DNA of 64,000 nucleotides from a virus (IMGVR_UViG_3300017605_000678:11537-75536); one strand, 5' to 3'; shown: positions 1 to 28,490, counted from the first letter of the stretch. The notes: generated by a model from the sequence alone, not told the origin. Made by a program: numbers and translations.

Positions 1-1434
1 GATCACGGCGATTGGATTGACCGCGACGTTCGCCGAGACAATGCAGTCCTCCAACACCACGAAGTTGGTCGAACTCGACACAAAAGGGTAGTAGCTCGTG
101 TAATGCTGGCCATCCGTTGCCGCGTCTCCCTGGGCTCGGAAAGCGTAATCCCCGTTGGCAAAAGAGGATTTATAGATCACGCCGAACGGCCCCTTGCAAT
201 AGACCATCCCGTTAATGAATTGGCAGTTGTGGATCCTGAACCAGTCGCCTCCGGGCGCCATGTTCAAGTGAACATTATGAATGCTCCCGTCCGCGTGATT
301 GTCAGAAGTTCCAACGAAGCGCACGCCGTCGAACTCGATCGCAGGCGCGCTGATCGTGCTTTGGCTCACCACGCCGTCTCCAGTAGTCGTGATCGTCGTG
401 AAGTTTGTCCCGCGCGGCGCCGAGATGTGAAGGAGCGACTTATTGAACGTCACCCCGCTGCTCCAGGTCGCGCTGCCGGCCGGCAGCCAGATCGTTTCTC
501 CGCCCGCGGTCGCCGCCGTCACTGCTGCTTGCACGTCTGCGGTTGCCAGCGAGGCGGCGCGCCAGATCGAGCCAGGGAACATCGGGAAGTTTGCGCCCGT
601 GTCGTCAATCACGACGTTGTCGATCCAGTGGAAAGAGTTTGGCGGCGCCAGCTGGTGCGCGTCATAGCGGCCGATTGTCAGATCCGCACAAGTCACGTTC
701 GCGATCTGGAGAGTCACGCGCGACCCAATAATGGTCCAGGTCGAGGGCTCCCAAACTTCCATACTGGCCGTGAGCGCGGCCTTGTCCCAAAGGCAAGTTA
801 CCCAGTAAAGGTGGTCCCGAGCCAGCACTCCGACCGTTGAAGTGAGACTTGGGCCGTTGCCGCCCACTTCAAGGTTGACCTCGATTCCTCCTGAGATGTT
901 GTAAAACTGGAAGCCGGCATACTGGCCGCCCCCGGTCACTTCCTCAGCGAACACCAGATCGTAAGACTGTCCGTCCGGGCTCCAGTTCCCGACCTTCACG
1001 TAAAAGCCCCAGCTGACCTTGGCCTTTGCTCCGCCATTGAAAGAGTATTGCATGGTCTCTTCCGTCTGCCCCGTGTTCGCGCAGCATGTAGAATCGTCCA
1101 TCTTGAGCGACCGCTTTGATCCGTCGTCGAGCACGAGCGTTCCGTTGGGCAGCCGCGTGCGCCACATCCGCGCCGCGATCGGGTTGTCTAGCGTCATGTG
1201 ACCGCCGTGCGTCGCCCGCTTGAGCGTCCAGGTACCGGCCGCGCTGCTCTGGGTGAATCCGTCCCAGATCTGGGCGGCCGTCGGCGTGCCGGAAGTCGGA
1301 TCGACCACGTCGCCGACGTTTCCATTTTCGAAGCGGATCACGGTCTGAATTCGCGCGCTCGAATTAAGCGGAGCGGCCGCACGGACGGAGCCGGCGGCCA
1401 GGAGGAGAGCCAGGAGGGCAAAAAGGATCTTCAT
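1..1434 (-). CDS. Secreted lectin-like + parallel beta-helix (pectin-lyase-like) protein, possible depolymerase/tailspike; runs off the left edge
   Basis: Not in the ORF track (no stop in window). Manual translation from ATG 1434, which overlaps the upstream stop as ATGA: MKILFALLALLLAAGSVRAAAP..., then ...ADVQAAVTAATAGGETIWLPAGSATWSSGV...FRIHNCQF...VVLEDC, a typical beta-helix cap and rungs. Confidence 0.7.
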   Translation of the reverse strand, partial: MKILFALLALLLAAGSVRAAAPLNSSARIQTVIRFENGNVGDVVDPTSGTPTAAQIWDGFTQSSAAGTWTLKRATHGGHMTLDNPIAARMWRTRLPNGTLVLDDGSKRSLKMDDSTCCANTGQTEETMQYSFNGGAKAKVSWGFYVKVGNWSPDGQSYDLVFAEEVTGGGQYAGFQFYNISGGIEVNLEVGGNGPSLTSTVGVLARDHLYWVTCLWDKAALTASMEVWEPSTWTIIGSRVTLQIANVTCADLTIGRYDAHQLAPPNSFHWIDNVVIDDTGANFPMFPGSIWRAASLATADVQAAVTAATAGGETIWLPAGSATWSSGVTFNKSLLHISAPRGTNFTTITTTGDGVVSQSTISAPAIEFDGVRFVGTSDNHADGSIHNVHLNMAPGGDWFRIHNCQFINGMVYCKGPFGVIYKSSFANGDYAFRAQGDAATDGQHYTSYYPFVSSSTNFVVLEDCIVSANVAVNPIAVI

Positions 1435-2027
1435 TTCCGGAAAAGTAGAAAAGGCGAGAGCGGTCTTGGCTCCTGGGGCTTCATGTAGCGCATTGGCTCA
1501 ACGGGGTGCGGCGCCCAGGCGAGTGTTACGGTCCCGGTCGGGCCGGCGCCCACGAGGATCAGGTCGGCCTTCGTCCAGTCCGTCACGCTGCGCGAGACGA
1601 GCGCCACGCCCGGCACTGGCACGGTGATCGCGCCCAGCTGGACGGCCCGAGGCGCCACGGGCTCGGGCGCCACTTGGAAGAGGACCCAATTGGTCAACGG
1701 CGATTCCTGGACCGCGTTCGTGCTCGTCACGGTGATCCAGTGACTCGATGCCAAGTCCCAATTGGTCAGCGTCACGCCAAGCGATTGGAAGACAAAACCG
1801 CCATTCGTGAACGTCTGGATGTTCGTCGAGGCAATGGCCCGCAGGAACACGCCCGAAACGGCGTTGCTCTCGTAAACCGTGTAGCCCGTCGGCACCATGA
1901 TCCCGGGCCCGCGCGGGGGCGCGTTCCAATACAGGATCAGCTGGCCAGGGACGGGCGCGGCCGCCGTCGTGAGGAGGAGGGTTTGCGCGAGTCCAACGAC
2001 GGCCACGCCGAAGAGTTTCTTGATCAT
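1431..2027 (-). CDS. Secreted fibronectin-III-like protein
   Basis: ATG 2027 in ATGA overlap; signal peptide MIKKLFGVAVVGLAQTLLLTTAAA; Fn3-like LILYWNAPP..GYTVY..WITVTSTNAVQESP. Confidence 0.6.
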   Translation of the reverse strand: MIKKLFGVAVVGLAQTLLLTTAAAPVPGQLILYWNAPPRGPGIMVPTGYTVYESNAVSGVFLRAIASTNIQTFTNGGFVFQSLGVTLTNWDLASSHWITVTSTNAVQESPLTNWVLFQVAPEPVAPRAVQLGAITVPVPGVALVSRSVTDWTKADLILVGAGPTGTVTLAWAPHPVEPMRYMKPQEPRPLSPFLLFRK

Positions 2028-2803
2028 GATGGGTTGCTCCCGAGGTCGCCCGTGTTGCCCAGGCGGATCTTGTCGTAAACGATCTTCCCGCTGCCAGAGT
2101 TTCCGAACGCGTCGAGGATCTCGATCTTGTCGATCGTTCGCTGCCCCGTGCCCGTCGCCGCCTTGGCGTGGTTGTTCGAGCCGTCCGCCGGCTTGGTCGC
2201 GCTCGTGTTGAACCAAATCTCGGAAATGTCCTCGCCCGCATTGGCGCCTTGCTTGTAGTGGAACCAAAGATGGTAGGTCGTGTCCGGCGAGACCGTCGCT
2301 ACTGTCGAAACGAGCGGGCTCCCGCCGTCTCCGTACACGCGAAAAAGGTTCCCGTTCAGATCCACCGTGAAAGCCGGGTTTCCGCTGGAGTCGAGCAGCT
2401 CGAGCAAGGTCGTTCCGCCGTCCGCAATGGTCACGAAGCGGATCATCATGTAACCCCAGACTTCCGGATTGTTGCCGAGGCTGCTCTTCGTGACGATCGA
2501 GTTATTCGCAGCCGGCATGCTCAAACTTTGGCTGCCAGCCAGCGGCGCCGGCGCCGCCGTGTCGTCCCAATTGGCCGCTCCGGCATCCAGCGTCCAGCCG
2601 CTGGGCGTGCCCGTGCCCTCGGCGTCCTCGCTCACGAGGTTTGCCGTCCCGTTGCCGCCGCCTCCGCCCGTGGGCGCGGCGCCTGGGCTCGGCAAGAGAC
2701 GATTGATAAAGAGGCCGCCCGATCCCGCGGCAGCTCCGCGCACGCGCTGGAGAGGAACGAGCGCAAAAGCCAAGAGAAGGGCGGCGAAAAGTAGGCGATT
2801 CAT
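2024..2803 (-). CDS. Secreted beta-sandwich (concanavalin/LamG-like) protein
   Basis: ATG 2803; signal peptide MNRLLFAALLLAFALVPLQRVRG; G-rich linker, then EDAEGTG..W..YDKIRLG lectin-like pattern. Confidence 0.6.
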   Translation of the reverse strand: MNRLLFAALLLAFALVPLQRVRGAAAGSGGLFINRLLPSPGAAPTGGGGGNGTANLVSEDAEGTGTPSGWTLDAGAANWDDTAAPAPLAGSQSLSMPAANNSIVTKSSLGNNPEVWGYMMIRFVTIADGGTTLLELLDSSGNPAFTVDLNGNLFRVYGDGGSPLVSTVATVSPDTTYHLWFHYKQGANAGEDISEIWFNTSATKPADGSNNHAKAATGTGQRTIDKIEILDAFGNSGSGKIVYDKIRLGNTGDLGSNPS

Positions 2804-2807
2804 ACGA

Positions 2808-5800
2808 TCAGAATTTTCGGACTTCGACCTTGAAGGTTCCACTGGCCGGATTCTGTGACGCGGCCACCGGGATGAAGCGTACCCAGACAAAATCGTTGCT
2901 CGCCCAGGCCATATACGACCCAAGGATCGGCATCACGGCCACGGGCGGAACGCCGAGCACGACCGGATCCCCGGGCAGAGCGCCAGTGACGGCGATCGAT
3001 AGATCGGCCACAGCTCCGGAGCTTGTGATCGGGAAGTCGAGCGCCGCGGAGGCCGTCAAGTTGGTTGTGGTCAGCAGCAGGGTTGCCGAGGCCGTCGCCG
3101 TGTTTGTCACGATCGCCAGCCCAGGATTCACTTGCAGCGCCAAGTCCGGGATCGCCTCCTCCCAGGCGTTGGTCCACGTTCCGCGCTTGACGAAATGGTA
3201 GCGGCTGACCGCGTTCGTGGGAACGAGCGCTTGCGTGAGCGGATGATTGATCCAGGAGGCCGCCGCGATCGGCTGCCAGACAACGGCGTTCTGCCCGCTG
3301 TTCGTGATTTCAAGGGTTACGTCCACGTTGGGCGAAAAGTTGGTCAGGACGATCGTCGTATTGGCCGAAATGGCGATTGAGTAAAAGTTGTTCGTGCCGT
3401 TCAGCTGAACGACGTTCGCATCGTTCTGCGGCGTGACGACCTTGTTACTGATCGCGCCGTCGGCGAAGAACCAGCCCTCGTTGAAAATGTTAGTGACCAG
3501 CGCATTGGCCTTGATGTTCGTTTGGCTGCCGCTGGCGTCGAACTGGTTCAAGTTGAACGGACCGCCGCCACCGCCGCCTCCGCCGCTGCTGGCAATTGTC
3601 GCCGTGCCCGCGGCCGTGTTAGTCGTGATCGTGATGTTCGGTCCGGCCACGAGCGCCAGACTCGGAGTCGCCTCTTCCCAGGCATTGGTCCACGTCCCAC
3701 GCTTCACGAAGTGATAAAAGCTGGTCGCGTTCGTAGGAACGCTTGCCTGCGCGTTCGGATGAGTCACCCAGGAGGAGGCGCCGATCGGCTGCCACGTCAC
3801 GACAAATTGCCCTGAATTTGTGATCTCCAGGTAGAGATCTACGTTTGGCGACAGATTGGTCAGGACGATCGTCGCGTCGGCTCCCAGCACGATCCGCCAG
3901 TTCTGATTCGTCCCATTGACCTGATACACGCTCCCGTTGAGCGTCGGCAGAAAGAGAGAATTGCTCAGCGCGCCGTCGAGCGTGATGAATCCGGCATTGT
4001 GAATGTTCGTGAGCAGCGGGCCGTTGCGGATGTTGGTCAAGCTGCCGGATCCGTCGAAGACGTCGGTATTGAACGAGCCCCCGCCGCCTCCGCCTCCGCC
4101 CGTGGCCCACTTAATGCCGGCCGGTTGCGTTGAGTCCGCTTGCAACGTCGTTCCATTGGCGCCCACGGCCACGCGGACCAAATGCGCGCCGTCATAGGCG
4201 AAGAGGTCGCCCTTGGAAAGTCCGCTGAGGGCCGCCATGTCCTGCAGGATCATCGCGTCGGCGCTCATGTTCCAACCGTAAATCGTGCCGGACAGCTGCG
4301 CGAAGCGGAACCACGTAACATAGTTAGGCGTCTGATTCGCTTGGCCAGGATCGACTTGGTTCGTTGCCGTCACCCACTTGATCCCGCTCGGCCACGTCAC
4401 GCTTCGGCCGCCCGTGCCGTCCTGGACGAGGAGAACATCGATCTGCTTGCCATTGCCGGCGTTGTTGAAAGTAAAGGTCGTGTTCACCCCAAGCGTTTTC
4501 GACCGCATGCTCGAGAGCGCCCAATCGATCGCAGTGCCCGAGATCGCCGCCTCTTGCCGATTGATCGGCCCGGAGAAAGTCTGCTCGAGCGAGAAGTTGT
4601 TTGCAGCATCCTGATAGGCCGTCGCCGCCGCCACGTTCCCGCGGGCAAGGATCCCGCTCACGGCGTTTGCGCTCGAAAGATCGATCGCGCCCCATGCCAG
4701 GGCGGAGGCCGCTCGGCGCAGCACTTGACCGTCCGCGCTCGAGGACATGTCTCCAGGCACTCCGGTCGAATTGGCCGCCCGACCGATCACGGAGAGCGCC
4801 GCGGAGTTTCGCAGCTTCGTGTCCGTCACGACGCCGGTATCAATCGTAAAGATCGTTCCGGAACTTGAAACCGTGATGTCTGTCTTGTCGCCGTCCGTGA
4901 GCGTGCCGGCGTTCACCCAGCTCACGTCCGCCCCCGTGCCGCCAGAGCGCAGCAGTTGGCCGAGCGTGCCCGGCCCCAGGGCGGTCCAGCCGGAGGCGCC
5001 GCGGAAGAGGACCGTGCCCTGGGCGCTCCCGGCCCAGTCGAGCAGCTGCGAGAGCGTGACCTCCTCAGTCACGCCGGCGGCCGCCGTGTTGCGGCCCAAG
5101 ACGCGCTGGCTAGCCGAAATGTTCTGCAGCTTGGAATAGCTCACGACGCCCGGATCGATCACCCAGGTCGCCCCGCCGCCGCTGACCGTGATGTCGGTCT
5201 TGTCGCCGTCCGTCACTCCGGCGCCCGAGGCCCAGCTCGGGTCCGCGCCGGCGCCGCCCGTGCGCAGGAAGTTTCCAGCCGTGCCCGGCGCCAATGCCAC
5301 CCAGCCACCCAGGCCGCGGTAGAGCACGCTTCCGCGCACGCTGGAAAGCCATTCCAGCAGCTGGCCAGGGTTGAGCGCCTCTGGCGGCCCGCTGCCGGCC
5401 GTCTGGCGCCCGAGGAACGTCTGGTTGGCAATGTTCGCGATCTTGCCCAGGCTCACGGCGCCGGCGTCAATCGTCCACGTCGCGCCGCCTCCTGAAACCG
5501 TTATGTCGGTCTTGTCGCCGTCCGTCACGGGCGAGACGGTCAAGGGCACAATGTTTGCCGAGGCGTCGAATCCAAGCACCTTGCCGGCGGCCCATGACGT
5601 CGCCGGCCAGTTGAAGAGCGTGGTCGGCGCAATCACAAACTGCTCGAAAATCTGCGCGTTCGTGAGGTTCACCCCGTTCTTGAGCGAGATCAGGCCCATA
5701 GTCGGTCCGAATCCAAGCGGAGAATAGAATTGGTCGGAGTTCAGCATTGTCCACTGGATCCCGACCTCTGTGCCCTGCAAGAACCAACCGTTGTGGTTGG

Positions 5801-6371
5801 CCGGCGGGTCCAGAGTCTCCCAGACGACGCCGTCGGAGAACAGGACGGAGCCCGCGGGCGCCTTGGCCCCAGTGAGCGAGTAAATCATGTTTAGGATATC
5901 GGAGGCAGCGATTGCCTCAGGGGCGCCAGTGCCGACCGAATAGCGGCCGAGGATCGTATTGCGCGCTTGGCTTTGCATTTTGGCCAGCGTCACGGCCGAG
6001 TTATTGATCGTCCAGGTCGAGCCGCCTCCGCTGACCGTGATGTCGGTCTTGTTTCCGTCCGAGACGCCGCCGCCGGTGCCCACCCCGCCGTGCGTTTCCC
6101 ATCCGGTCGTCGTGGCCGTGCCGTTTGTCTTCACGAAGAGCGTTCCAGCGCCCACGCTATTGGTCCGGATCCAGATGTCGCCAACGGAGCCGCTGATCGC
6201 GCCCTCGGGCGCCACGTTGCCGGCTTGAATCGTCCCGGGCTTGCCCAGCTTGACCGAAAGGTTGGCGTCGGAGTTTGTCGTGTTCCGGTTCTTGAGGATG
6301 GGCGGCCCGAACTGGGCCGCGGCCGGAAAGCAGATCGAAAGGAGGAGCGCGAGGCGCAAGATCGTCTTCAT
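2808..6371 (-). CDS. Large modular phage fibre protein with N-terminal signal peptide (1187 aa)
   Basis: ATG 6371, MKTILRLALLLSICFPAAA-QF; PEG..GS..LFVK..TGW domain; four DG(D/N)KTDITVS repeats; LVQDGTGGRSVTWP..KW fibre domain; duplicated ~170-aa C-terminal module. Confidence 0.75.
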   Translation of the reverse strand: MKTILRLALLLSICFPAAAQFGPPILKNRNTTNSDANLSVKLGKPGTIQAGNVAPEGAISGSVGDIWIRTNSVGAGTLFVKTNGTATTTGWETHGGVGTGGGVSDGNKTDITVSGGGSTWTINNSAVTLAKMQSQARNTILGRYSVGTGAPEAIAASDILNMIYSLTGAKAPAGSVLFSDGVVWETLDPPANHNGWFLQGTEVGIQWTMLNSDQFYSPLGFGPTMGLISLKNGVNLTNAQIFEQFVIAPTTLFNWPATSWAAGKVLGFDASANIVPLTVSPVTDGDKTDITVSGGGATWTIDAGAVSLGKIANIANQTFLGRQTAGSGPPEALNPGQLLEWLSSVRGSVLYRGLGGWVALAPGTAGNFLRTGGAGADPSWASGAGVTDGDKTDITVSGGGATWVIDPGVVSYSKLQNISASQRVLGRNTAAAGVTEEVTLSQLLDWAGSAQGTVLFRGASGWTALGPGTLGQLLRSGGTGADVSWVNAGTLTDGDKTDITVSSSGTIFTIDTGVVTDTKLRNSAALSVIGRAANSTGVPGDMSSSADGQVLRRAASALAWGAIDLSSANAVSGILARGNVAAATAYQDAANNFSLEQTFSGPINRQEAAISGTAIDWALSSMRSKTLGVNTTFTFNNAGNGKQIDVLLVQDGTGGRSVTWPSGIKWVTATNQVDPGQANQTPNYVTWFRFAQLSGTIYGWNMSADAMILQDMAALSGLSKGDLFAYDGAHLVRVAVGANGTTLQADSTQPAGIKWATGGGGGGGGSFNTDVFDGSGSLTNIRNGPLLTNIHNAGFITLDGALSNSLFLPTLNGSVYQVNGTNQNWRIVLGADATIVLTNLSPNVDLYLEITNSGQFVVTWQPIGASSWVTHPNAQASVPTNATSFYHFVKRGTWTNAWEEATPSLALVAGPNITITTNTAAGTATIASSGGGGGGGGPFNLNQFDASGSQTNIKANALVTNIFNEGWFFADGAISNKVVTPQNDANVVQLNGTNNFYSIAISANTTIVLTNFSPNVDVTLEITNSGQNAVVWQPIAAASWINHPLTQALVPTNAVSRYHFVKRGTWTNAWEEAIPDLALQVNPGLAIVTNTATASATLLLTTTNLTASAALDFPITSSGAVADLSIAVTGALPGDPVVLGVPPVAVMPILGSYMAWASNDFVWVRFIPVAASQNPASGTFKVEVRKF

Positions 6372-6432
6372 GTTATTTCGTTCGGCCGGTCCAGAGCGGA
6401 GCGCGCTCCCGGCCCAGCGCGCGCAAAAAGAA

Positions 6433-6687
6433 TTAAGCCTGCAAGACGAGGTTCCACCCCGTGTTCCCGGAACCGCCCGAAAACTTGAAGTAAAGGAACC
6501 CGGTCGCCGTGTCGCCGTACCACGATCCTTGCGCAGCAGCGACCACGCCCTCGGGCGCGCCCGAGCCAGTGAGATTGCTCCCGCTGCCCGTGATCGTCGT
6601 CCCGCCGGCGCCGGTCGTGCCATGCCGGATCATCATGGGGATCGACCGGCCGACTCTAACTCTCGACGGACGATGGATGTAGGCCAC
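6433..6687 (-). CDS. Small virion protein with GAPEG..GSWY..LYFK..GNTGW domain
   Basis: Probable GTG 6687; shares its domain with the N-terminus of the 2808-6371 fibre but has no signal peptide. Confidence 0.55.
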   Translation of the reverse strand: MAYIHRPSRVRVGRSIPMMIRHGTTGAGGTTITGSGSNLTGSGAPEGVVAAAQGSWYGDTATGFLYFKFSGGSGNTGWNLVLQA

Positions 6688-6871
6688 GGGCTCCTTTCCG
6701 GCGCCCAGGGCGCCAGGGCTTGGATTGCTCGGGCTCAGGCGCGGCCGCCGGCGCAGAGGGCGCCGTTGCCACGGCCGGGACCACGACAATCGGGATCGGG
6801 AAATGACGTTCCCGCCGGCCGACGTGCTCGGCGAGCGGGATGCGTACGCGGCGAATGAATTGCAGAGGCAT
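6656..6871 (-). CDS. Hypothetical protein
   Basis: ATG abuts the stop of the upstream gene; fills the operon gap. Confidence 0.4.
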   Translation of the reverse strand: MPLQFIRRVRIPLAEHVGRRERHFPIPIVVVPAVATAPSAPAAAPEPEQSKPWRPGRRKGARGLHPSSVES

Positions 6872-7087
6872 TTAGATGGCGTTCGCGCCGATCGCGATCT
6901 GCTTCCAGTTGGTCCCGTCGCTCACTGCCAAGCAGGCAACGGAGCCAGTGCCGCCCGCAGTCAGCTTGATGATCCGGTTTTTGTTCGTCTTGGCCGGAGG
7001 CGCATTGGCAACCACACTGAACTCTGCCACCGGAGCGTTGAGGGTCCCTTTGTAAAGGCCCGCGTCGCGTGCTGTTTTGTTGGCCAT
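6872..7087 (-). CDS. Putative head decoration/head-fibre protein
   Basis: Immediately after MCP; CLAVSDGTNWKQIAIG motif resembles small capsid-associated beta-proteins. Confidence 0.55.
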   Translation of the reverse strand: MANKTARDAGLYKGTLNAPVAEFSVVANAPPAKTNKNRIIKLTAGGTGSVACLAVSDGTNWKQIAIGANAI

Positions 7088-7166
7088 AAGAGATCGTTTT
7101 TGATTCTGCGCCCCAGGCCGGCCCCACCGGCCCAGGGCTTTGTTTTAGAAACTCGCGAGCCCGGTC

Positions 7167-8240
7167 CTAGTTGTTATGCGTGATGCCGACAAACCGGATG
7201 TTCTTGTAAACGTAAACCGGAGGCGTGGCCGCGCCGTCGTAGCCCGTCACCCAGATCGGGGTCCAACGGGCCGCCGTGGCCAGCTGCGCGTCGGTCGCGC
7301 CGCCGTCGGCAGTCGCGCCGCCCGTCGTGTCGTTCCACTGGAAGCCGCGCGGATGCTTGATCCAGCGGCGCCGATTGATAAGCACGTCGTCGTGAGCCAG
7401 CGAAACGCGGCTCAACTCGACGCCCTTCGTACCGAACCCGCCGGACAGCGGCTCATTCAAGCGCTGATTTCCGAACCCGAACACGCCCGGCCCGTAGAGG
7501 ACCGAAGTGTAAACCACGCCGTCGGTCGAGCCGGCACGCGTCGGCATCTGGTCGGTGATGATCACGCGCCGGCCCTGGAAGACCGCGATCGTCGGCTTGC
7601 CTTCAGAGTCGGGCAAGTAGTCGATCAAATCCTGCTTCTTAAGCGCCGCCTCCGTCGCCGAGTGCATGGAGATCGCCACGAGGTCGCGGTTGGCGTCGCC
7701 CAGCTTCTGGACGGCGTCCACGAAGGTCGAGCCGTTCAGCTTCGTCGCCGACGTCTGCGCGGCAATCGATTCCGAATGAATGGCCAGCAAGTTGGGGTCG
7801 CCAGTCACGGCGTCGAGCGCGCCAATGATCCCTTTGACGGAAGCGATCACGATCGATTGGTCGATCTCCGTCCAGTAAGTGGCGACGAAGTCGGCGATCG
7901 CCATCATCGGATCGTCGCCGGCCAGCAGCGCGGCCAGGAGGGTCACGCTCCAGGCGTTGCCGTCATTGTGAATCCGCGCCACGTCGGTCGACGTGTTGAT
8001 CGAATTCACAGAGAACGAGCCGGAGTCCGAGATCAACTGCCGGGCCGCGAGCGAGACCGTGCCCTGCTTCCACGCGGGCATTGAAACGATCTTGCCGCCG
8101 TCGGAGATGAGCGCGTCGTACTGCGGGCCGACCTCGATAATGTCGGATTGCCCGAAAGAAGTATTGATGACCGATCGCTCGATCACGTAGTCCTCAAAAA
8201 TGCTCGGGACGAGGACGTCGGAAACCAGTGTTTTCGCCAT
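7167..8240 (-). CDS. Major capsid protein (HK97 fold, SPP1 gp13-like)
   Basis: 357 aa after scaffold; MAKTLVSDVLVP, LAGDDPM..IA, KLGD..MHS, FQGRRVIITD, HPRGFQW motifs. Confidence 0.9.
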   Translation of the reverse strand: MAKTLVSDVLVPSIFEDYVIERSVINTSFGQSDIIEVGPQYDALISDGGKIVSMPAWKQGTVSLAARQLISDSGSFSVNSINTSTDVARIHNDGNAWSVTLLAALLAGDDPMMAIADFVATYWTEIDQSIVIASVKGIIGALDAVTGDPNLLAIHSESIAAQTSATKLNGSTFVDAVQKLGDANRDLVAISMHSATEAALKKQDLIDYLPDSEGKPTIAVFQGRRVIITDQMPTRAGSTDGVVYTSVLYGPGVFGFGNQRLNEPLSGGFGTKGVELSRVSLAHDDVLINRRRWIKHPRGFQWNDTTGGATADGGATDAQLATAARWTPIWVTGYDGAATPPVYVYKNIRFVGITHNN

Positions 8241-8301
8241 AAAATCCGCAATTTGCTGTTATGGCGAAGGTCCGCTTTTTGGGTGCGTGGCCCGCGCCGG
8301 T

Positions 8302-9126
8302 TTACGCGATCCGGGCTTCCCGCTGCGCCTGTTCTTTCATGCGTCGGGCCAGTTCCGGATTCTCTTTCGTGATCTTCCCTTGCAGCGTCAAGTTGAAGGT
8401 CTTCTTAGACCATGGATTGACGTTGGGGGTTCCGGATCCGCTGGACCCGCTTCCGCTCGCTCCGGCGCCGGAAGACTCTTTGGCAAGATACGTGTGCTGC
8501 TTCAGCAGCTCATCCTGCAACCACTCGGTGATTCCAAGATTGCTCGTGCCGTCACGATTGGAGCGAGGGTTGCCGTTCCTGTCAAGCGCCACGAGGTTTC
8601 CATCCTTCAGGCTCCACACGCCGTCCGCGAAACGTAGGATCGCCATTTCCGCCCCAGGCTGGAGCGACAGCTGCCGGCACGCGTTCAGGATCGAGTTTTC
8701 GATCGTCGTCTTTTCCAGCTTCGCCTGGGCCGCGTCGGCCCTGGAATTGGCCTGTTTGAGCTTGTTCTCCATGTCCTCTTTGATCGCCTTCGTGCGCTCG
8801 ACGATCATCGCGTCCACGCCGCCCTTGCGGAGGTACTGCTCGGCGTCATCCAGCTCGACGCCCTTAGAAACATTCAGCAGCGCGCGCGCTCGGTCCGGGT
8901 CTTCGATCCCCTTGAATTTTTCCTTGAGCGAATCGTTTTCGGATTTCAGAGCGCGGTTGTTCTCGCGGAACTCGACGAAGCGCCCCTTGGGGACCACGTC
9001 TTCGACGTCAAGCACCCACATCTTCACTTTCGTTCCGTTGGCCAGCTCGACCTCGCGTTCGTGGTAAAGGCTCTTGTGTTCGGCTGGAACCTCGGTCTCC
9101 TTCTCAACGTGATATTTCAGGGGCAT
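8302..9126 (-). CDS. Capsid scaffolding protein
   Basis: Coiled-coil, G/S-rich tail ending NPW..TFNLT.QG.I.KENPELA; directly upstream of MCP. Confidence 0.8.
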   Translation of the reverse strand: MPLKYHVEKETEVPAEHKSLYHEREVELANGTKVKMWVLDVEDVVPKGRFVEFRENNRALKSENDSLKEKFKGIEDPDRARALLNVSKGVELDDAEQYLRKGGVDAMIVERTKAIKEDMENKLKQANSRADAAQAKLEKTTIENSILNACRQLSLQPGAEMAILRFADGVWSLKDGNLVALDRNGNPRSNRDGTSNLGITEWLQDELLKQHTYLAKESSGAGASGSGSSGSGTPNVNPWSKKTFNLTLQGKITKENPELARRMKEQAQREARIA

Positions 9127-9192
9127 AAACAAGCGGTTCTCGCCAGCTCGACGGAGCCAGCGGCCCGGCGCTTCGGCGCCCAGGTCTTTCTT

Positions 9193-9750
9193 TCAGTGAC
9201 GTTGCCGATCGTATTTCGGGCGCAGCAGCGCCAGAACGTCGGCCCCGGGGGCAACCTCCCGAGGCAGTAAATTGTCCATGCGAGCCAGGATGGCCTCTTG
9301 GATCGCCGTGGCATGCTCGACGGGCAGGCCCATTTCGGAGGAGTCCAGCAAGCGGATCTTGCCGTGGTCGCGGCGCGCTTTCTCCTGGGCCACCATGAGG
9401 AGCGCGAACACGAGCGAGGCCGTGTCATCCCGCAGGCGCACGACCTCGGGCCGCTGCGCCAAATAAATAACTTCCCACCACGCTCGGTACTTCGCCGCCT
9501 CGCGGCCGTTGATCTGCTTCGCTATGGCCCACCATTTCTCAGTCTGGGTCCATAAATCCCAGGTTGGGATCAAGTGGGCCACGCGAAAAGTCCGCTGATC
9601 CCGACAAATGATCGGCAGCAAATGGCTTTCGTTTCCGATGATCGTGTGCCAGTCCTGCCGGAGGCCTTTGTTGATCGCGGCCGCCGTGTGAAGGCTCGTC
9701 GAGAGATCGGAGGCGACGTTGACGCGCTTTTTCTGATAGTTCTCGCTCAT
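9193..9750 (-). CDS. Hypothetical protein
   Basis: ATG 9750 (MSENYQKK) coupled to upstream stop. Confidence 0.55.
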   Translation of the reverse strand: MSENYQKKRVNVASDLSTSLHTAAAINKGLRQDWHTIIGNESHLLPIICRDQRTFRVAHLIPTWDLWTQTEKWWAIAKQINGREAAKYRAWWEVIYLAQRPEVVRLRDDTASLVFALLMVAQEKARRDHGKIRLLDSSEMGLPVEHATAIQEAILARMDNLLPREVAPGADVLALLRPKYDRQRH

Positions 9751-10019
9751 CGCTTGCGCGCTTCGTGCTGGATCTTTTCGGCCTCTTTGTTCAAAGCGAC
9801 CATGCTCTCGTGCTCGGCGCCCAGGCAACTGGTGCAGACGCGAACCCCGGGCTGGCCGGGCCGGCCGTGCACGATGTGGCCCTCGAACTCGCTCCGGGAT
9901 TTCTTGCAGCGCGGGCAAATGAACTGGTCCTTGCCGACTGCGCGCATGATCGAGACGACGACCGCCACCATGCCGGCCAGGAGCGCCCCCAGGATCACGA
10001 GTGAAACCTTCAGCGTCAT
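9747..10019 (-). CDS. Membrane-anchored zinc-finger protein
   Basis: N-terminal TM helix; CPRC...CTSC. Confidence 0.55.
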   Translation of the reverse strand: MTLKVSLVILGALLAGMVAVVVSIMRAVGKDQFICPRCKKSRSEFEGHIVHGRPGQPGVRVCTSCLGAEHESMVALNKEAEKIQHEARKR

Positions 10020-10381
10020 TTGCCGTAGGCTTTCGAGAGCGCTTGCTCCTCGCGCTCAAAGGCCGCCTTGGCTTTGTCGATCTTCCGCTGCGATCCAAGT
10101 GTGCCGTAGGAATGCGAGCCCATGAGCGCGACCGGGGGCTGAGTGCTTCCGGAGAAAATGTCAACCCAGACGCGGCCAAAGAACAGGATCGAGAGCCGCT
10201 CGCGCCAGCTCGGGCGCCAACAGGAAATACAGCGCTTGCCGTCGGCCGTCCGGTGCACGACCAGCGCGCCGCAGTTGTTCATTCCGGGCGGAGCGTGCAA
10301 CGTCATATTGCTACCAGCCCATTTCGGGACCGTAGTCATAGGCTCAGGAGTGACCGTCCAAAACTTGTCGTGAGCGAACAC
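10016..10381 (-). CDS. Hypothetical phage protein
   Basis: APPGM..CGAL.V...CISCWRPSWRERL.ILFFG.VW, a pattern recalled from phage hypotheticals. Confidence 0.6.
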   Translation of the reverse strand: MFAHDKFWTVTPEPMTTVPKWAGSNMTLHAPPGMNNCGALVVHRTADGKRCISCWRPSWRERLSILFFGRVWVDIFSGSTQPPVALMGSHSYGTLGSQRKIDKAKAAFEREEQALSKAYGK

Positions 10382-10384
10382 GGT

Positions 10385-11098
10385 TCAGAGTTTGATCGTG
10401 AGGCGCGGGCCCGCGAAGAAACGGCCGAACGCGGCGCCGGCCTTCCCGTTGCCGGACACGTCGAAGGCGTACGCAACGAAGATATCCCCAGAAACGTATT
10501 TGCTCTTCAGGAGGTTCACGGAGGCGCCCAGGGGCACGCGGCAGAACACGGAAAGATCGGTGCCGTGATTGGCGCTCGAGGCGCCTTCTATGTCGTAACC
10601 CAGGCCGATTCCGGCGTTGAGGCGCACGCGCGGTCCGACCGGCGCTTCCAGGCGCAGGCCGCCGCCGGCACGATCGATCACAGCGTGGGCCGTGTTGTCG
10701 CTCTCGCCAAATCCCCAGAGCGACAGATACCCGGTCAAGTGCGCGACCACGTTCGCGCCGGCGCCCGTGACGGCCCGGCCGTCGAGCCCGCTCCAGCTTA
10801 CGGTCCCGTATGGCTCCAGCGAGACGTCGGCCAGGAACGGGTTTGCCTTCTCGTCGCGCGTCGGCGCCTTGGCCTTTGGCGCGGCCGTCAACTCCTCCGG
10901 CTTGCCCTGGGGCGGAGCGCCCGCGGGCGCCTGGGCAATGTCAAATTCGGAGCCGCCGCGCAGTGTCACATCGCCTTTGTCGCCGTCGCTCAAGACGTCG
11001 TGAAACGTGGGAAGCAGGTTCGGAGTTTGGGTTTGCGCGGGCGCGAGCCGAACGAAGGAAAGCGCCGCGATGGTAGCCAGCAGGAGGATTTTGCGCAT
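10385..11098 (-). CDS. Secreted outer-membrane beta-barrel protein
   Basis: ATG 11098; signal peptide MRKILLLATIAALSFVRLAPA; about 8 amphipathic G/aromatic strands ending FFAGPRLTIKL. Confidence 0.65.
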   Translation of the reverse strand: MRKILLLATIAALSFVRLAPAQTQTPNLLPTFHDVLSDGDKGDVTLRGGSEFDIAQAPAGAPPQGKPEELTAAPKAKAPTRDEKANPFLADVSLEPYGTVSWSGLDGRAVTGAGANVVAHLTGYLSLWGFGESDNTAHAVIDRAGGGLRLEAPVGPRVRLNAGIGLGYDIEGASSANHGTDLSVFCRVPLGASVNLLKSKYVSGDIFVAYAFDVSGNGKAGAAFGRFFAGPRLTIKL

Positions 11099-11142
11099 AT
11101 TGGAGCCAGTCTCTACACCCAGGGCCGTTTGGCCTTCAAGAC

Positions 11143-11196
11143 AAAAAGCGGACGGGCGACAGCGCGAAGCGAAACGCGAATACCGCCACCCGCCGC
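11143..11196 (-). terminator. Putative intrinsic terminator
   Basis: Minus-strand hairpin GCGGCGGGTGGCGG...CTGTCGCCCGTCCGC followed by TTTTT. Confidence 0.5.
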
Positions 11197-11239
11197 GCCC
11201 TTCCGCGTCCGGACAGCCCACACGGGCGCCGGCACAGCG

Positions 11240-11292
11240 AAAAAATAAACGAGGCCGCCCCTTCCCCCTGGACGAAAGGTCGAGACGGCCTC
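11240..11292 (-). terminator. Putative intrinsic terminator
   Basis: Minus-strand GAGGCCGTCTC...GGGGCGGCCTC followed by GTTTATTTTTT. Confidence 0.5.
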
Positions 11293-11356
11293 TCGCGGCG
11301 CCGGGCAAGTCGGAAAAGTCTGCATTCCCCCGAAAAGCCGTTGAGCATCCGCAAAT

Positions 11357-12139
11357 TCAGTATTGGCCGGCATCTGGATCGCGCGGAACGCTGACCTTCA
11401 GCGGCTCGGCCTCCGCCGCCTGGGGCTTGCGCACGATCCGCTTGTAAAACGCGCAGGCACCGGTGCCACGGCGATCGATCTTTCCGTTGCGCGCCAAGTC
11501 GATCAGACGCACGCGCAGATCCTGTTCCTGAGTCTGGCGCGCCACGAGCGCGGGATGCCTCTCCTTCAGCCATACGATCAGCTCGGTCACTTGGAACCAA
11601 TCGGCTTCGGATTCCAGGAACTCGAACACGGCGCCCACTTGAGGAGAGATTGGCCCGGCATGGTGGCCGTTCAGCCGGATCGGAGCAGCCGGCGCCGGCG
11701 GCGCCTTGGGCTCCTGGGCCGGCTCCTTCGTCGGCTCCTTCGTCGGCTCGGGATCCGGAGCAGCCGCCGAAGGCACCCCATACGTCCCTGTGCCGAGGCG
11801 CACGGCCTCGCCGCGCGAGACCATCGCGTTCAGCGCCGAGTAAGCGGTCCCCAGCTTCAGCCCGGTCAGCTTGGCGACCTCGTTCAGGCGCCGCGGTACC
11901 GAAAGGATCTTGAGCAGGTCCTCACGCGAAACGCGCGGAGGCCTCCCGGAGGAACCGCCGGCAGGCTTGGACTTACCGGGCTTGCTAGTCGCCGCCTTGC
12001 TCTTCGGCCCGCTGGCGAGCGTGCCACGATCGACCAGGGTATCGATCATGCCGTCCAGGCTAGTGAGCACTCCTTGCAACTCTTCAAGTCGAGCCGCCAC
12101 TTCGGCCCGCGCGTGTCGCAGTGCTTCAATCATGGTCAC
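11357..12139 (-). CDS. Putative winged-HTH DNA-binding protein
   Basis: LNEVAKLTGLKLGTAYSALNAMVSRGEAVRLGTGTY plus a second wHTH-like unit. Confidence 0.6.
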   Translation of the reverse strand: MTMIEALRHARAEVAARLEELQGVLTSLDGMIDTLVDRGTLASGPKSKAATSKPGKSKPAGGSSGRPPRVSREDLLKILSVPRRLNEVAKLTGLKLGTAYSALNAMVSRGEAVRLGTGTYGVPSAAAPDPEPTKEPTKEPAQEPKAPPAPAAPIRLNGHHAGPISPQVGAVFEFLESEADWFQVTELIVWLKERHPALVARQTQEQDLRVRLIDLARNGKIDRRGTGACAFYKRIVRKPQAAEAEPLKVSVPRDPDAGQY

Positions 12140-12330
12140 TTTCGCTTGCGGTTCGCCTTGCGCGCATTCAAAGCAGCCTGGGCTTCATGCTGGAGCCGTC
12201 GATTGTGGGAGTGTGCTGCTTTCCGGAGTTTGCCGGCCGCGATCGGCTGGCCTTTCTTGGCCCCCAGTTTGCGCCGAAGTTGGCCGTGAGCGTTCGCGAA
12301 GGCTTTGCCCATCCAGTTTTTCTTGGCCAT
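12136..12330 (-). CDS. Small basic virion-associated protein
   Basis: K/R/A-rich, HGQLRRKLG...IAAGKLRKAA; in the head module. Confidence 0.55.
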   Translation of the reverse strand: MAKKNWMGKAFANAHGQLRRKLGAKKGQPIAAGKLRKAAHSHNRRLQHEAQAALNARKANRKRK

Positions 12331-12366
12331 GACGATCGCCGTTGTCGCATGCTCGATACCCACGCG

Positions 12367-13383
12367 TCAAGCGGGAAGCGGCAACGGCGCCTTGGCCAGC
12401 TTCGCGAAGTCGTCCAGAGAGAGCGGCCGGCCCGCTTGCCGAATCAAATCCGTGTCCCCGAGTTTCTTTGCGCGCCACAGCCGCACGCGCTCGGCTCCGA
12501 ACAGTTCATCGCGGACCGCGGGCGCCAGTCGGTCGAGCAGCTGGCCCAGGTTGATCTGCTCGGGCGCCGGCTCGTCGAGGTCGAGCATCACGACACGGCT
12601 CCTGCAGTTGTAATGAAGCGGGGGCTGTTCAAACTTCAGCTTGTGCCCGATCGGCTTGTACTCGGCGTCCCAGCGCTTCCAGGCGCGCGCGCGACAGATC
12701 TCCGTCGTCCGGTTGTCCAGGACGGAAACGTGTTGCCATCCGTAGTTGAAGCCGTCGGAGGAGCCGAGCAGGACCGCGCTGTTTGCCGCGTCGTCAACGG
12801 AGGTACGGATCACGGTCTCCAGCTGACCGGCGGAGCGCTCCACCGCCCCCGGGCGCTTGACTTTGCCCGGCTCCTCGCCGCGGAGGATCGCTCCTATTTC
12901 CGAGGCCGTCTGGCCGCTGCGGGTCCCGCTCGACACTGTCGAGGTCGTTCGGTAGACCAAATCTTCGTACACTTTATCGAGCGCGTCGCGCACGCGCGTT
13001 CCGAGCACTGTCGGCTTGCCCACCACGCCGGCGGGAACGTCCGCCAAGTCGATCACGCGGTCCGCCACGGCCAGCCATGCAGCTTTCTCCATGTCGCCGG
13101 AGGCAGAGCGAAGCAGCGCAAGCCAGCCCTCCAGGTCGCCGGACATGTCGCGGAACACGCCCCGCAAGAGGGAAGCCAGGGCGGCCGAGAAGTCGTTAAT
13201 CCGAGCGGCCCGGGTCGAGGGCCGGACCGGAGCGGTTGGGTCGAAGCGAAAGAGCAGGCCGACGATCTCGGCGTCGAGGCCTTCCAGCTGGGCCAGCAGC
13301 TGCGCCGTCATCCAGGTCGCAACACGCTGCAGCTGGGCTTGACGCACGAGGGCCAGCAGGACGATCTGGTCCGCGTCGCTCAC
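12367..13383 (-). CDS. Minor head (MuF / SPP1 gp7-like) morphogenesis protein
   Basis: GTG 13383; VIRT...SVLDNRTTEIC...PPLHYNCRS. Confidence 0.85.
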   Translation of the reverse strand: MSDADQIVLLALVRQAQLQRVATWMTAQLLAQLEGLDAEIVGLLFRFDPTAPVRPSTRAARINDFSAALASLLRGVFRDMSGDLEGWLALLRSASGDMEKAAWLAVADRVIDLADVPAGVVGKPTVLGTRVRDALDKVYEDLVYRTTSTVSSGTRSGQTASEIGAILRGEEPGKVKRPGAVERSAGQLETVIRTSVDDAANSAVLLGSSDGFNYGWQHVSVLDNRTTEICRARAWKRWDAEYKPIGHKLKFEQPPLHYNCRSRVVMLDLDEPAPEQINLGQLLDRLAPAVRDELFGAERVRLWRAKKLGDTDLIRQAGRPLSLDDFAKLAKAPLPLPA

Positions 13384-16989: not shown

Positions 16990-17169
16990 TCACCGTTTCG
17001 GGCTCAACTTGTCCAGCCCCATGCCGGCGCCCTCGATCTTGTCGGCGCTCGATTCAATGGTCCGGACCGTGCCGTCCGTGCTCGTGATCGTTTCTTTGAC
17101 ATAGGGGCGCTCGATCCGCGCGACGCAACCGGCCAGGAGGAGGAACGGGAGAAGCAAAAAGATTCGCAT
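16990..17169 (-). CDS. Small lipoprotein
   Basis: MRIFLLLPFLLLAG-C lipobox. Confidence 0.65.
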   Translation of the reverse strand: MRIFLLLPFLLLAGCVARIERPYVKETITSTDGTVRTIESSADKIEGAGMGLDKLSPKR

Positions 17170-27168: not shown

Positions 27169-28490
27169 AAAAGGAGGCCGGGCGTCACGGCGCAACGGGC
27201 GCGCGCTTGCTCGGCATAGTCGGGGTTCAACTCCAGGAGGAGCGCAGAGCGGCCCAGCTCGAGCGCTACGGCGCCGGTCGTGCCGCTCCCGGCAAATGGG
27301 TCCAGGACGATCGCCCGGCCCGTGGGCGCCCCGCCGGAGCACTTGCAGGTCGGGCGCCAGCCCACGGTCTTGCGCTCGCGCATGCCGGCCAGGATCCGCG
27401 CCTTCGTCGCGCTGGCATCCTGGGCGCCGGCGGCGCCGAAGTCTTTGGTCGCTTTGCCGGAGTATTCGCCGTTGGCGTCGCCGCCGCACGCGCGCTGGTG
27501 CTCCAGGTCTGGCTTGCCCTTGCGCACGATCCGAACGTACGGCGCCGCGCAGACGGAGCAGCAGCCTCCGGCCGACGTGCCGGCCAGGATGCACGGTTTG
27601 ACCAAGTCCGGCGGGAACGTCGCGAAATGGGCGCCGGGGTAAGCGTAAGTCGTGATCGTCCACACGCTCCGCTTGTTTCGGTCAGGAACAAGATCGATCA
27701 CGGCCGCGCTGAAACTTGAATTCTGTTTTGAGCCGTTGGCGCCGTTATTGGCCGCCGCCTTTGGATTCAAGCCGGCGATCCGCGAGTAAGCCGATTGTTC
27801 CGGAGCATGGTACCCGCGCCCGCGGGCGGCGCGCGCGTGCGAATCCGGGCTGCTAGCCTCTTTAATCGCCTCGCCATCGTAAAAGTAGCGCGCGGACTTC
27901 GTGAGCAGAAACACGTACTCGTGCGCCTTCGTCGGCCGGTCCGTGACACTCTCCGGCATCGGGTTTGGCTTGTGCCAAATGACGTCCGCGCGCAGCACCC
28001 AGCCGGCCGCCTGGAGCGCGAACGCCACGCGCCAAGGAATGCCGATCAAGTTTTTCGTCGCGAGCCGTCCGGCGCCCTTGTGCTGTTCGTCCTGCCGAGG
28101 AGCACGGTCGCGCCGGAACGAAGACCGGTGGCCGACGCGCGGGCCACTGCTGCGCAGCTTGCGAGCGGCGCGCTCCTGGGCGTGCTGGGTGCCGTCGAGC
28201 GCGCTCTTCGTGCCCACACTGCCGCCCCAGCCGCTCGCCGTGTAGCAGTCCCCGAGGTTCAGCCAGAGCGTTCCATCATCCCGGAGCACGCGCGCCACTT
28301 CGTCGAAGATCTCGACCAGCTTTTGCACGTAGGCCTCGACCGTCCGCTCGCGCCCGATCTGCCCTGGATGATTGTAGTCGCGGACCGCCCAGTAGGGTGG
28401 AGAAGTGACCACGCAATGCACGGAGGCCTCGGGCAGCGCGCGCAGCAGGGCCAGGGCGTCGCCCACGCGCAGATCAAGGGTTGGGCTCAT
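27165..28490 (-). CDS. DNA methyltransferase (N4-C/N6-A, beta class)
   Basis: VTSPPYW, WHKPNPMPESV.DR, HFATFP..L, LDPFAGSGTT. Confidence 0.92.
   Translation of the reverse strand: MSPTLDLRVGDALALLRALPEASVHCVVTSPPYWAVRDYNHPGQIGRERTVEAYVQKLVEIFDEVARVLRDDGTLWLNLGDCYTASGWGGSVGTKSALDGTQHAQERAARKLRSSGPRVGHRSSFRRDRAPRQDEQHKGAGRLATKNLIGIPWRVAFALQAAGWVLRADVIWHKPNPMPESVTDRPTKAHEYVFLLTKSARYFYDGEAIKEASSPDSHARAARGRGYHAPEQSAYSRIAGLNPKAAANNGANGSKQNSSFSAAVIDLVPDRNKRSVWTITTYAYPGAHFATFPPDLVKPCILAGTSAGGCCSVCAAPYVRIVRKGKPDLEHQRACGGDANGEYSGKATKDFGAAGAQDASATKARILAGMRERKTVGWRPTCKCSGGAPTGRAIVLDPFAGSGTTGAVALELGRSALLLELNPDYAEQARARCAVTPGLLL

Follow-up and report, generated by a model that had tools for sequence, protein, structure and literature searches.

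The window analysed here, a stretch of 64,000 nt, belongs to the 75-kb metagenomic genome of an uncultured tailed phage without cultured relatives (CheckV completeness 100%), with weak hints at Verrucomicrobiota as the host. Between the capsid gene and the head-tail joining gene, in the late structural operon, lie four consecutive, tightly packed minus-strand genes whose products of 1187, 259, 198 and 684 aa (SP1187, SP259, SP198 and SP684) begin with a basic, then a hydrophobic, then a small-residue stretch, as the initial annotation had described. SP1187 (2808-6371) carries the leader MKTILRLALLLSICFPAAA, with predicted cleavage before QFG, and a fibre-like, multi-domain body. SP259 (2024-2803) has the leader MNRLLFAALLLAFALVPLQRVRG, cleaved before AAA, and a ConA-like jelly roll, whereas in SP198 (1431-2027) the leader MIKKLFGVAVVGLAQTLLLTTAAA is followed by an Fn3-like domain. 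The leader of SP684 (1-1434) is MKILFALLALLLAAGSVRA, cleaved before AAP; the window holds the first 478 of its 684 residues, and the gene extends 620 nt past the window start (full-genome coordinates 10916-12970). On the same strand, the small leaderless p67/p84 (6433-6636) opens the inserted block, and the small protein p71 (6872-7087), conserved in relatives, comes right after the SPP1 gp13-like major capsid protein (MCP; 7167-8240). The match of the latter to phrog_247 (4.8e-72) bears out the capsid assignment made beforehand.

The longest ORFs of three of the cassette genes start 84, 40 and 80 codons upstream of the leader ATGs. With the leader ATGs as starts, the gene junctions consist of one 4-nt gap and two ATGA overlaps, one of which joins the SP198 ATG to the SP259 stop; a start picker based on codon usage agreed independently, so the view that these ATGs are the true starts was upheld. 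The cassette lies within the late structural operon with neither gap nor terminator, and no sigma-70-like promoter was found in 1-11500, a consensus that may not be the host's. A moron, i.e. an independently transcribed accessory gene, was rejected as a description, given that no promoter of its own was found and the genes overlap or are 4 nt apart.

Leaders were called by a simple rule, which combined charge in the n-region, 8-18 uncharged hydrophobic residues and small residues at -3/-1. Ten of the 107 called genes were leader-bearing, and a run of at least four such genes had a permutation P of ~0.004. All four cassette proteins, as well as the barrel protein OMP237 encoded nearby, fit this Sec/signal peptidase I rule, with predicted cleavage sites such as AAA↓Q, VRG↓A, VRA↓A and APA↓Q. 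In two AF2 models, the leader stood apart as a single helix at the N-terminus, connected to the body by a disordered linker. As to the conservation of leaders in homologues, every homologue in a second, unrelated viral contig kept them, but the relatives sharing the head module lacked the block. Orthologues in the L017 cassette retained their leaders, with bodies 42-62% identical over the aligned stretches, and leaders recurred in diverging homologues from contigs of 39-63% G+C. Twin-arginine variants occurred in the SP259 family and lipobox variants among its neighbours. Moreover, mature SP1187, SP259 and SP198 contain no cysteine, whereas the remaining proteome has 13 per 1000 residues. The conserved leaders, the twin-arginine variants, the cysteine-free mature parts of these three proteins and the outer-membrane barrel that accompanies the cassette all speak for the export that had been proposed. 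Because all four proteins bear export signals that look genuine in sequence, they almost certainly act in the cell envelope. NCBIfam searches of the cassette proteins were negative for a T9SS C-terminal domain and for other sorting signals, and there was no autotransporter barrel either; no path by which these proteins could move on from the periplasm to the surface was detected.

SP1187 is composed of the leader (residues 1-19, AAA↓Q), a small N-domain (~45-91), four DUF5907-type repeats starting at 105, 284, 388 and 493 with DG[DN]KTDITV heads, and a tail-fibre-tip-like domain (601-700), followed by two more ~165-aa copies with poly-Gly linkers and a C-terminal domain of ~85 aa. In hmmscan, the match to Pfam DUF5907 (PF19264) reached 2.4e-5 and 24.8 bits against a family cut-off of 27, while a precomputed table assigned PF19264 to SP1187 and most of its homologues. 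The domain at 611-670 is shared with the C-terminal domain of the phage's own leaderless tail fibre (55453-56349, minus strand, 298 aa), with 41% identity over 61 aa (E 3e-8), in agreement with the initial annotation. A second domain, said to be common to SP1187 and the small 6433 protein, is weakly supported: BLASTP gave E 0.21, and the Smith-Waterman score with p67/p84 was 63 vs. 34 ± 6 for shuffled sequences, equalled by one of 2000. This small protein, for which the ATG at 6636 is a likelier start than that at 6687, resembles the N-terminal module of mature SP1187. About 70 of the 89 SP1187 homologues are without a leader. Leaderless DUF5907 tail fibres of uncultured phages have the repeat units and the tip-like domain in common with SP1187, but start with particle-attachment-type N-termini (T7-fibre or Mtd-type) where SP1187 has its leader. 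The context of leader-bearing DUF5907 relatives yielded short repeat matches only. A PDB sequence search with SP1187 returned chance-level matches only, 50,697 phage records contained five short matches, and a literature search found no paper on DUF5907. Bacteroidota-type O-glycosylation of SP1187 by the host was also considered and rejected; the sequons are not enriched (one observed vs. 4.4 expected).

In SP259, a Gly/Pro-rich disordered linker (17-51) separates the leader from the jelly-roll domain (55-259). The AF2 model had a mean pLDDT of 84.9, with values above 90 for 168 residues, and Foldseek returned at least 500 matches at E ≤ 0.001, of which the best had TM scores of 0.45-0.64. The top matches were PL20 and PL36 lyases, calreticulin, L-type lectins and the CBM2 of the phage J-1 Dit. 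According to the model, SP259 has the concanavalin A-like lectin/glucanase fold. The family is unnamed and comprises at least 912 representatives, nearly all of them here on small or viral contigs; leaders were present in 97 of the 150 listed members, the query's own record included, and twin-arginine leaders (RRxF[LIV]K) in 12 of 149 representatives. In an alignment of 40 members, only Trp180 and Asp244 were invariant, and Gly65, Trp70, Asp80, Leu88, Gly90, Gln92, Ser93 and Pro205 were nearly so. The same alignment contained no invariant Tyr, His, Lys or Arg and no catalytic residues were identified in it; therefore, the domain may only bind sugar. Pfam recognised no family in these 40 members, the PDB sequence search with SP259 gave composition-type WD40 matches only, and the 50,697 phage records held one weak match. 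Among 401 Verrucomicrobiota genomes, one, a Verrucomicrobia MAG, encoded a member of the family, beside rfbC-type genes, and an exact-pattern scan of 185,579 species genomes found it in one record.

An atlas search with SP198 led to Fn3 clusters (score 0.90, 171 shared features). The L017 cassette has a leader-bearing 137-aa gene in the SP198 position, with no similarity to SP198 detected by BLASTP. In SP684, the leader appears to be followed by a ConA/DUF1080-like N-domain and then a probable right-handed beta-helix; this lead comes from atlas comparisons (language model and ESMFold, moderate quality) with feature scores of 0.86-0.91 and TM of 0.34-0.45, and searches of Pfam, PHROG, NCBIfam and PDB sequences gave no match. 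Among 5.8 billion proteins, SP684 had just two homologues, each ~50% identical, of which the full-length one keeps the leader; none occurred in the 50,697 phage records. Thus, of the appendage-like bodies expected from the initial annotation, the fibre is backed by homologues and the lectin by a fold model, while the depolymerase stays at the level of a lead. Just outside the window, a 123-aa holin-like gene overlaps the end of SP684. In its product, three hydrophobic helices precede a charged tail, with weak matches to PF16079 (0.0069) and phrog_1129 (5.4e-4), which points to a possible link with lysis. A 199-aa gene also lies just outside the window.

OMP237 (10385-11098, minus strand, 237 aa) is encoded 4 kb from the cassette. 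Its leader (APA↓Q) is followed by a 70-aa disordered extension with one DGDKGDVT fibre-repeat head, and eight strands were modelled over residues 91-236. Foldseek matched the model to OmpA, OmpW, OprF-N, NspA, OmpX and Ail; by its predicted structure, OMP237 is an 8-stranded outer-membrane beta-barrel of the OmpA-TM/OmpX/Ail-Lom type. Neither Ail_Lom nor another Pfam or NCBIfam family matched the sequence, nor did any PDB sequence. All 12 homologues have leaders and end in Trp, Phe or Leu (Trp or Phe in 10); OMP237 itself ends in Leu. In the second cassette-bearing phage (G001), an OMP237 homologue closes the cassette. The barrel resembles lambda Lom and the Ail/OmpX barrels of phage late operons, which are likewise 8-stranded, leader-bearing and located among late structural genes, but differs from them in its 70-aa, presumably periplasmic extension with the fibre-repeat head and in its partnership with a multi-gene exported cassette.

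The cassette is distributed differently from the genes around it. Relatives that have the portal, scaffold, MCP, p71 and adaptor in common with this phage were searched by tblastn at 15 loci, without a match to any cassette gene, and relatives with capsid proteins 47-54% identical lack the whole block. The nine relatives that match p71 are 40-89% identical in its C-terminal half; on its left side, the conserved head module ends with this gene. In contrast, p67/p84 belongs to the insertion and not to the conserved head genes; as a candidate docking partner on the head it was rejected, as it is not conserved with the head module. The phage also has its own complete, lambda-like, leaderless tail tip, in addition to the leaderless fibre. 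In G001, which has an MCP of a different family, the cassette is preceded by the tape measure gene and four small genes. No leaderless fibre was visible there between the tail genes and the cassette, an arrangement that fits virion fibres as well. In these comparisons, the cassette genes did not accompany the head or tail module from relative to relative, as genes for virion structural proteins would. The cassette looks like a mobile accessory module, inserted relative to its kin and placed differently in the second phage. Since the relatives do without the block and the leaderless tail tip is complete, it looks accessory and envelope-acting.

The explanation that we favour, at about even confidence, is a mobile cassette in the late operon whose Sec-exported products act in the periplasm, the outer membrane or at the cell surface. 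It would comprise the four leader genes and the leaderless 6433 gene, with the holin-like gene and the 199-aa gene just outside the window and the barrel gene 4 kb away, and would be translationally coupled to the late structural operon. The host Sec pathway would carry the products across the inner membrane, and the module may bind or cut a surface polysaccharide of the host around the time of lysis. Its likeliest purposes would be either to hide or strip away the receptor that the phage itself uses, both on the dying cell and on its debris, or to loosen an outer sugar layer for release. With a domain that recurs in the phage's tail fibre, SP1187 could bind the same target, and the barrel, through the fibre-repeat head on its periplasmic extension, could anchor the fibre to the outer membrane. 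Phage proteins with such a role are known: Llp of T5 and Cor of T1, phi80 and N15 are receptor-blocking lipoproteins encoded beside receptor-binding genes, and proteins of this type protect against superinfection and the loss of progeny on debris. Like them, the cassette products would be phage-encoded, exported and active on the phage's own receptor. However, Llp and Cor are single lipoproteins of 60-80 aa, whereas the cassette encodes four large soluble-type proteins (198-1187 aa) without lipoboxes, and SP1187, unlike Llp and Cor, is built from tail-fibre modules.

The initial annotation had offered two interpretations, virion appendages exported to the periplasm or a fibre coat on the infected cell. 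Export stands in both, but assembly of the virion in two compartments is disfavoured by the absence of the block from the 15 loci of relatives, by the place of the 6433 gene in the insertion, by the leaderless tail tip and fibre and by the different place of the cassette in G001; action on the envelope of the infected cell fits better. We regard it as rather unlikely that the products are exported, fold outside the cytoplasm and dock at lysis as head or side fibres. Such appendages would agree with the uninterrupted late operon around the cassette, the receptor-binding-type bodies and the domain common to SP1187 and the tail fibre, and leader-bearing runs fill the tail-fibre slot in G001 and in a further locus (L023). 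Attachment once the cell has lysed is feasible chemically, since P22 and T4 particles accept tailspikes and fibres in vitro. Nevertheless, relatives with the same head module manage without the block, the leaderless tail tip and fibre are already present, no known particle-binding N-domain was recognised (the leaderless homologues have one where SP1187 has its leader), and the companion outer-membrane barrel cannot belong to a virion. A cultured comparison is provided by Cellulophaga phage phi18:3 (NC_021794), a podovirus of Bacteroidota. Its gp085, gp086 and gp087 are three consecutive large leader proteins with cleavage before Gln, encoded just ahead of small membrane proteins and lysis genes, including an endolysin, and their annotation as virion or tail proteins in that record derives from MS/MS. 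These annotations favour appendages, but the cassette proteins bear no sequence resemblance to gp085-087, and detection by MS in a virion preparation is also compatible with co-purifying envelope proteins. It seems doubtful that the exported fibre, lectin, Fn3 and beta-helix proteins fold in the periplasm and dock on finished particles at lysis, with phi18:3 as the first cultured case.

A role as exported lysis or egress enzymes, replacing a missing endolysin and released or activated by the holin-like protein, appears improbable. Eight common endolysin Pfam families were silent in the complete genome, although two of these searches were uninformative (their controls were silent too) and a divergent endolysin may hide among the ~70 unannotated genes. 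The overlap of the holin-like gene with SP684 would suit this role, and leader-bearing proteins followed by small membrane proteins also occur in G001, in locus L021 and in phi18:3, but the last has its own endolysin beside the leader-bearing genes. Signal-peptide and SAR endolysins, such as Lys44 of Oenococcus phage fOg44 and Lyz of P1, are likewise late, Sec-exported before holin action and encoded beside the holin. In contrast, no muramidase, amidase or peptidase fold, nor any other peptidoglycan-hydrolase fold, was found in the cassette, and it is hard to see what a fibre of 1187 aa with tail-fibre domains would do in lysis. We give still less credence to secreted carbohydrate-active auxiliary metabolic genes that would feed the host from external polysaccharide, unrelated to receptor or release. 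SP684 resembles, as a lead, secreted pectate-lyase-family architectures with a DUF1080-type N-domain, and polysaccharide lyases are among the best fold matches of SP259. However, translational coupling to late virion genes would come too late for feeding the host, the near-absence of the ConA-like family from the 401 Verrucomicrobiota and the 185,579 species genomes makes it look virus-specific, and the fibre and the barrel do not fit. Finally, that the hydrophobic N-termini are start-codon artefacts or hydrophobic assembly helices and not export signals is very hard to credit. The leader calls rest on a simple rule and the longest ORF begins upstream of the leader ATG in three genes, but the leader starts are those that give the ATGA overlaps and match the codon-statistics choice, leaders recur across the 39-63% G+C contigs despite diverging sequences, twin-arginine and lipobox variants exist in the family and its neighbours, and the mature parts of SP1187, SP259 and SP198 are free of cysteine.

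Most of the exported proteins known from phages are the products of lone small genes, e.g. Lom, Bor, Cor and Llp. Our literature search found no paper describing exported tail fibres. Matrishin et al. (2023, PMC10367356) reported leaders with cleavage before Gln on unknown genes of Porphyromonas phages. Here, several genes together encode large proteins resembling fibres, lectins and enzymes, and the entire set appears to be exported and to move between unrelated phages. The set includes an unnamed ConA-like family of at least 912 clusters, almost only on small or viral contigs. Cultured phi18:3 is an existing system for the question of virion vs. envelope. If the virion parts were built in the periplasm, tailed phages would have a second assembly compartment, so far undescribed for them, and the textbook picture would change. 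If the cassette acts in the envelope, as we favour, phages would remodel the doomed cell's surface, or strip it, using copies of their receptor-binding parts, which would bear on superinfection, the loss of progeny and host range.

The four cassette genes were located in the late region of a single source contig of 75,536 bp, of which the window covers bases 11537-75536. The two ends of the contig overlap by 141 bp; IMG/VR classes it as bearing direct terminal repeats, and its completeness according to CheckV is 100%. With few exceptions, the called genes are encoded on the minus strand. In transcription order, the late region begins with terminase, portal, a MuF-like head protein and several unknown genes, followed by a leader-bearing 237-aa protein (10385-11098, minus strand), scaffold and the major capsid protein (phrog_247, 4.8e-72). 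Next come a 71-aa protein (p71), a small leaderless 67/84-aa protein at 6433 and the minus-strand cassette, comprising SP1187 (2808-6371), SP259 (2024-2803), SP198 (1431-2027) and SP684 (1-1434, running off the window). Beyond SP684 lie genes for a membrane protein of 123 aa with three helices and for a 199-aa protein. The head-tail adaptor (DnaT_2, 4.9e-31) comes next, then a response-regulator protein and the tail genes, which encode terminator, tube, tape measure and a lambda-like tip. The response-regulator gene (receiver domain PF00072 at 1e-15; full-genome positions 8834-9442, minus strand, 2.1 kb before the window start) is inserted between the adaptor and the tail genes and has no match in relatives.

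All four genes, leader sequences included, match the initial annotation exactly. In three of the four, the longest ORF begins 40-84 codons upstream of the leader ATG. With the leader ATGs as starts, neighbouring genes are 4 nt apart in one case and overlap by ATGA in two, and the same ATGs were selected independently by a start picker based on codon usage. A leader was defined by a net positive n-region, 8-18 uncharged hydrophobic residues and small residues at -3 and -1; this rule marks 10 of the 107 called genes, and the permutation probability of a run of at least four is 0.004. AlphaFold modelled the leader of both SP259 and the 237-aa protein as an isolated helix, with a disordered linker after it. 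Cysteine is absent from mature SP1187, SP259 and SP198, compared with 13.3 per 1000 residues in the remaining proteome. The homologue search also bore out conservation of the leaders: on a second viral contig, the SP1187, SP259 and SP684 homologues all start with one, and the leaders of its cassette genes differ in sequence and share the same form. Together with the homologues of the 237-aa protein and the SP259 family, both described below, the second contig, the models and the lack of cysteine make it well supported that the leaders are real export signals. Cleavage before Gln is predicted in two of them, in accord with the Bacteroidetes Q rule (PMC10367356). Two further exported-looking proteins are encoded in the early/middle region, a 59-aa lipoprotein with an LLLAGC lipobox (16990-17169, minus strand) and an 84-aa protein with a CxxC motif and a leader cleaved before Gln (28487-28741, minus strand).

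SP1187 is fibre-like. A small N-domain is followed by four DUF5907-type repeats, a tail-fibre-tip-like domain, two copies of ~165 aa set off by poly-glycine linkers, and a C-terminal domain. Among its 89 homologues, ~70 have no leader and begin as tail fibres do, for example with a T7 fibre or Mtd_N N-terminus, and ~19 have a leader. The domain said to be common to SP1187 and the leaderless 298-aa tail fibre (55453-56349, minus strand) was confirmed, with 41% identity over 61 residues (E 3e-8). The module likewise said to be shared with the 67/84-aa protein is weak: the BLASTP E value is 0.21, and the local alignment score of 63 was reached by 1 of 2000 shuffles (34 ± 6). SP1187 has more Thr-Asn dipeptides than expected (22 observed, 9.0 ± 2.7 expected), as does SP198 (5 and 0.7 ± 0.8), and N-x-S/T is mildly enriched in SP1187 (23 and 15.4 ± 3.4). 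Directly downstream of the tail fibre lies a radical SAM and SPASM-domain enzyme (54120-54950, minus strand; PF04055 at 2e-12, PF13186 at 1.6e-14), neighboured by a 115-aa Cys-containing protein (55060-55407) and a 48-aa membrane peptide (54947-55093); the enzyme may serve within the tail-fibre region as a maturase of peptides or proteins.

SP259 was confidently modelled as a ConA-like jelly roll (mean pLDDT 84.9), with polysaccharide lyases PL20 and PL36, calreticulin, L-type lectins and a phage Dit carbohydrate-binding module as best structure matches. Because the family alignment contains no invariant Tyr, His, Lys or Arg, sugar binding would be as likely a function as catalysis. The family has 912 representatives at E ≤ 0.001. 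By the leader rule, 97 of the 150 members listed, including the query's own record, carry leaders, and classic twin-arginine RRxF[LIV]K leaders in 12 of 149 listed would be hard to read as anything other than export signals. On further contigs of 39-55% G+C, the SP259-family gene sits within runs of several leader- or lipobox-bearing genes, one of them starting one gene after a gpJ-like central fibre. Such runs, of four to nine (nearly) consecutive genes, surround it on the unrelated viral contigs L021 (4205-11574), L022 (5121-13890), L023 (5150-13844) and L027 (5108-11251), where some genes bear leaders of Tat-lipoprotein type. The domain also occurs in leaderless proteins of other contigs, as at the C-terminus of a 685-aa fibre-like protein on contig L024. 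The sole cellular-genome match is in a Verrucomicrobia MAG (QHRI01000400.1), where the domain lies N-terminally in a protein whose open frame spans 881 aa or more (919 aa by genome search), adjoining dTDP-sugar epimerase and nucleotidyl-transferase genes. Weak hints point to a Verrucomicrobiota host; Bacteroidota O-glycosylation sequons are not enriched, and all relatives are metagenomic.

For SP198 and SP684 the assignments are leads. SP198 is probably Fn3-like. SP684, with only two homologues among 5.8 billion proteins, may combine an N-domain of DUF1080/ConA type with a right-handed beta-helix C-terminal to it. The 237-aa protein was modelled as an 8-stranded barrel matching OmpA, OmpW, OprF, NspA, OmpX and Ail; its homologues have a leader in 12 of 12 cases and a C-terminal W or F in 10 of 12. 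It also carries, in contrast to all its homologues, an extension of 70 aa that contains a single DGDKGDVT repeat head. Both termini of barrels of the OmpA/OmpX type are periplasmic, so the extension should be periplasmic as well.

The capsid protein identified 15 related viral loci (34-54% identity), in most of which portal, scaffold, capsid, a p71 homologue and adaptor follow in close succession. In these loci, tblastn gave no match to the 67/84-aa protein, SP1187, SP259, SP198, SP684 or the barrel. The conserved edges of the insertion are p71 and the adaptor, each found in nine relatives. The second carrier, a 33-kb contig (IMGVR_UViG_3300017605_000811), encodes homologues of SP1187, SP259 and SP684 with 42-50% identity over the aligned parts (residues 304-761 of SP1187). 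In the place of SP198 it has a leader-bearing 137-aa gene, with no similarity to SP198 by BLASTP. Its capsid family differs (phrog_212), and its cassette follows the tape measure and four small genes, includes in addition a leader-bearing YadA-like protein and others, and is succeeded by two small membrane proteins and then a homologue of the barrel. By sequence comparison, the cassette is an apparently mobile accessory insertion. As a separate observation, p71 (6872-7087, minus strand), a small head-associated protein without a family match, is unusually conserved: its C-terminal ~35 residues share 73-89% identity with six relatives, whose major capsid proteins share only 47-49%.

The initial annotation had proposed that the cassette products are exported appendage proteins that either dock on virions at lysis or form a fibre coat on the infected cell. 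Its export part is well supported, whereas virion parts routed through the periplasm seem unlikely to us. What keeps that reading alive is Cellulophaga phage phi18:3 (NC_021794), in which gp085, gp086 and gp087 bear leaders ending GYSQ/V, VSAQ/T and LNAQ/T and are recorded as virion structural or tail proteins "based on experimental MS/MS proteomics analysis". They are encoded just ahead of small membrane proteins and the endolysin of that phage. They show no sequence similarity to the cassette products, and envelope proteins may have co-purified with the phi18:3 particles. Moreover, the phage studied here already has a complete leaderless tail tip (a gpJ-like protein of 978 aa, phrog_1101 at 1.1e-62) and a leaderless fibre, and the cassette is accessory among loci that share the head genes. 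On these grounds, and with export well supported, we favour an exported, envelope-acting module.

Translation of the cassette is coupled to that of late genes; the region yielded no sigma-70-type promoter, nor was a terminator seen between the cassette genes. The 123-aa gene after SP684 is holin-like. A search of the complete genome for eight canonical endolysin families detected none: PF00959, PF01510, PF01464, PF01183, PF13539 and PF01520 gave no match where their controls did, and PF00182 and PF05838 were silent together with their controls. No route was found by which the products would pass from periplasm to cell surface. The envelope-acting module would operate towards the end of infection. 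Since a domain of the phage's own fibre recurs in the exported one, the latter may bind the phage's receptor, and the lectin and helix proteins would act on surface polysaccharide, by binding or by cutting it.
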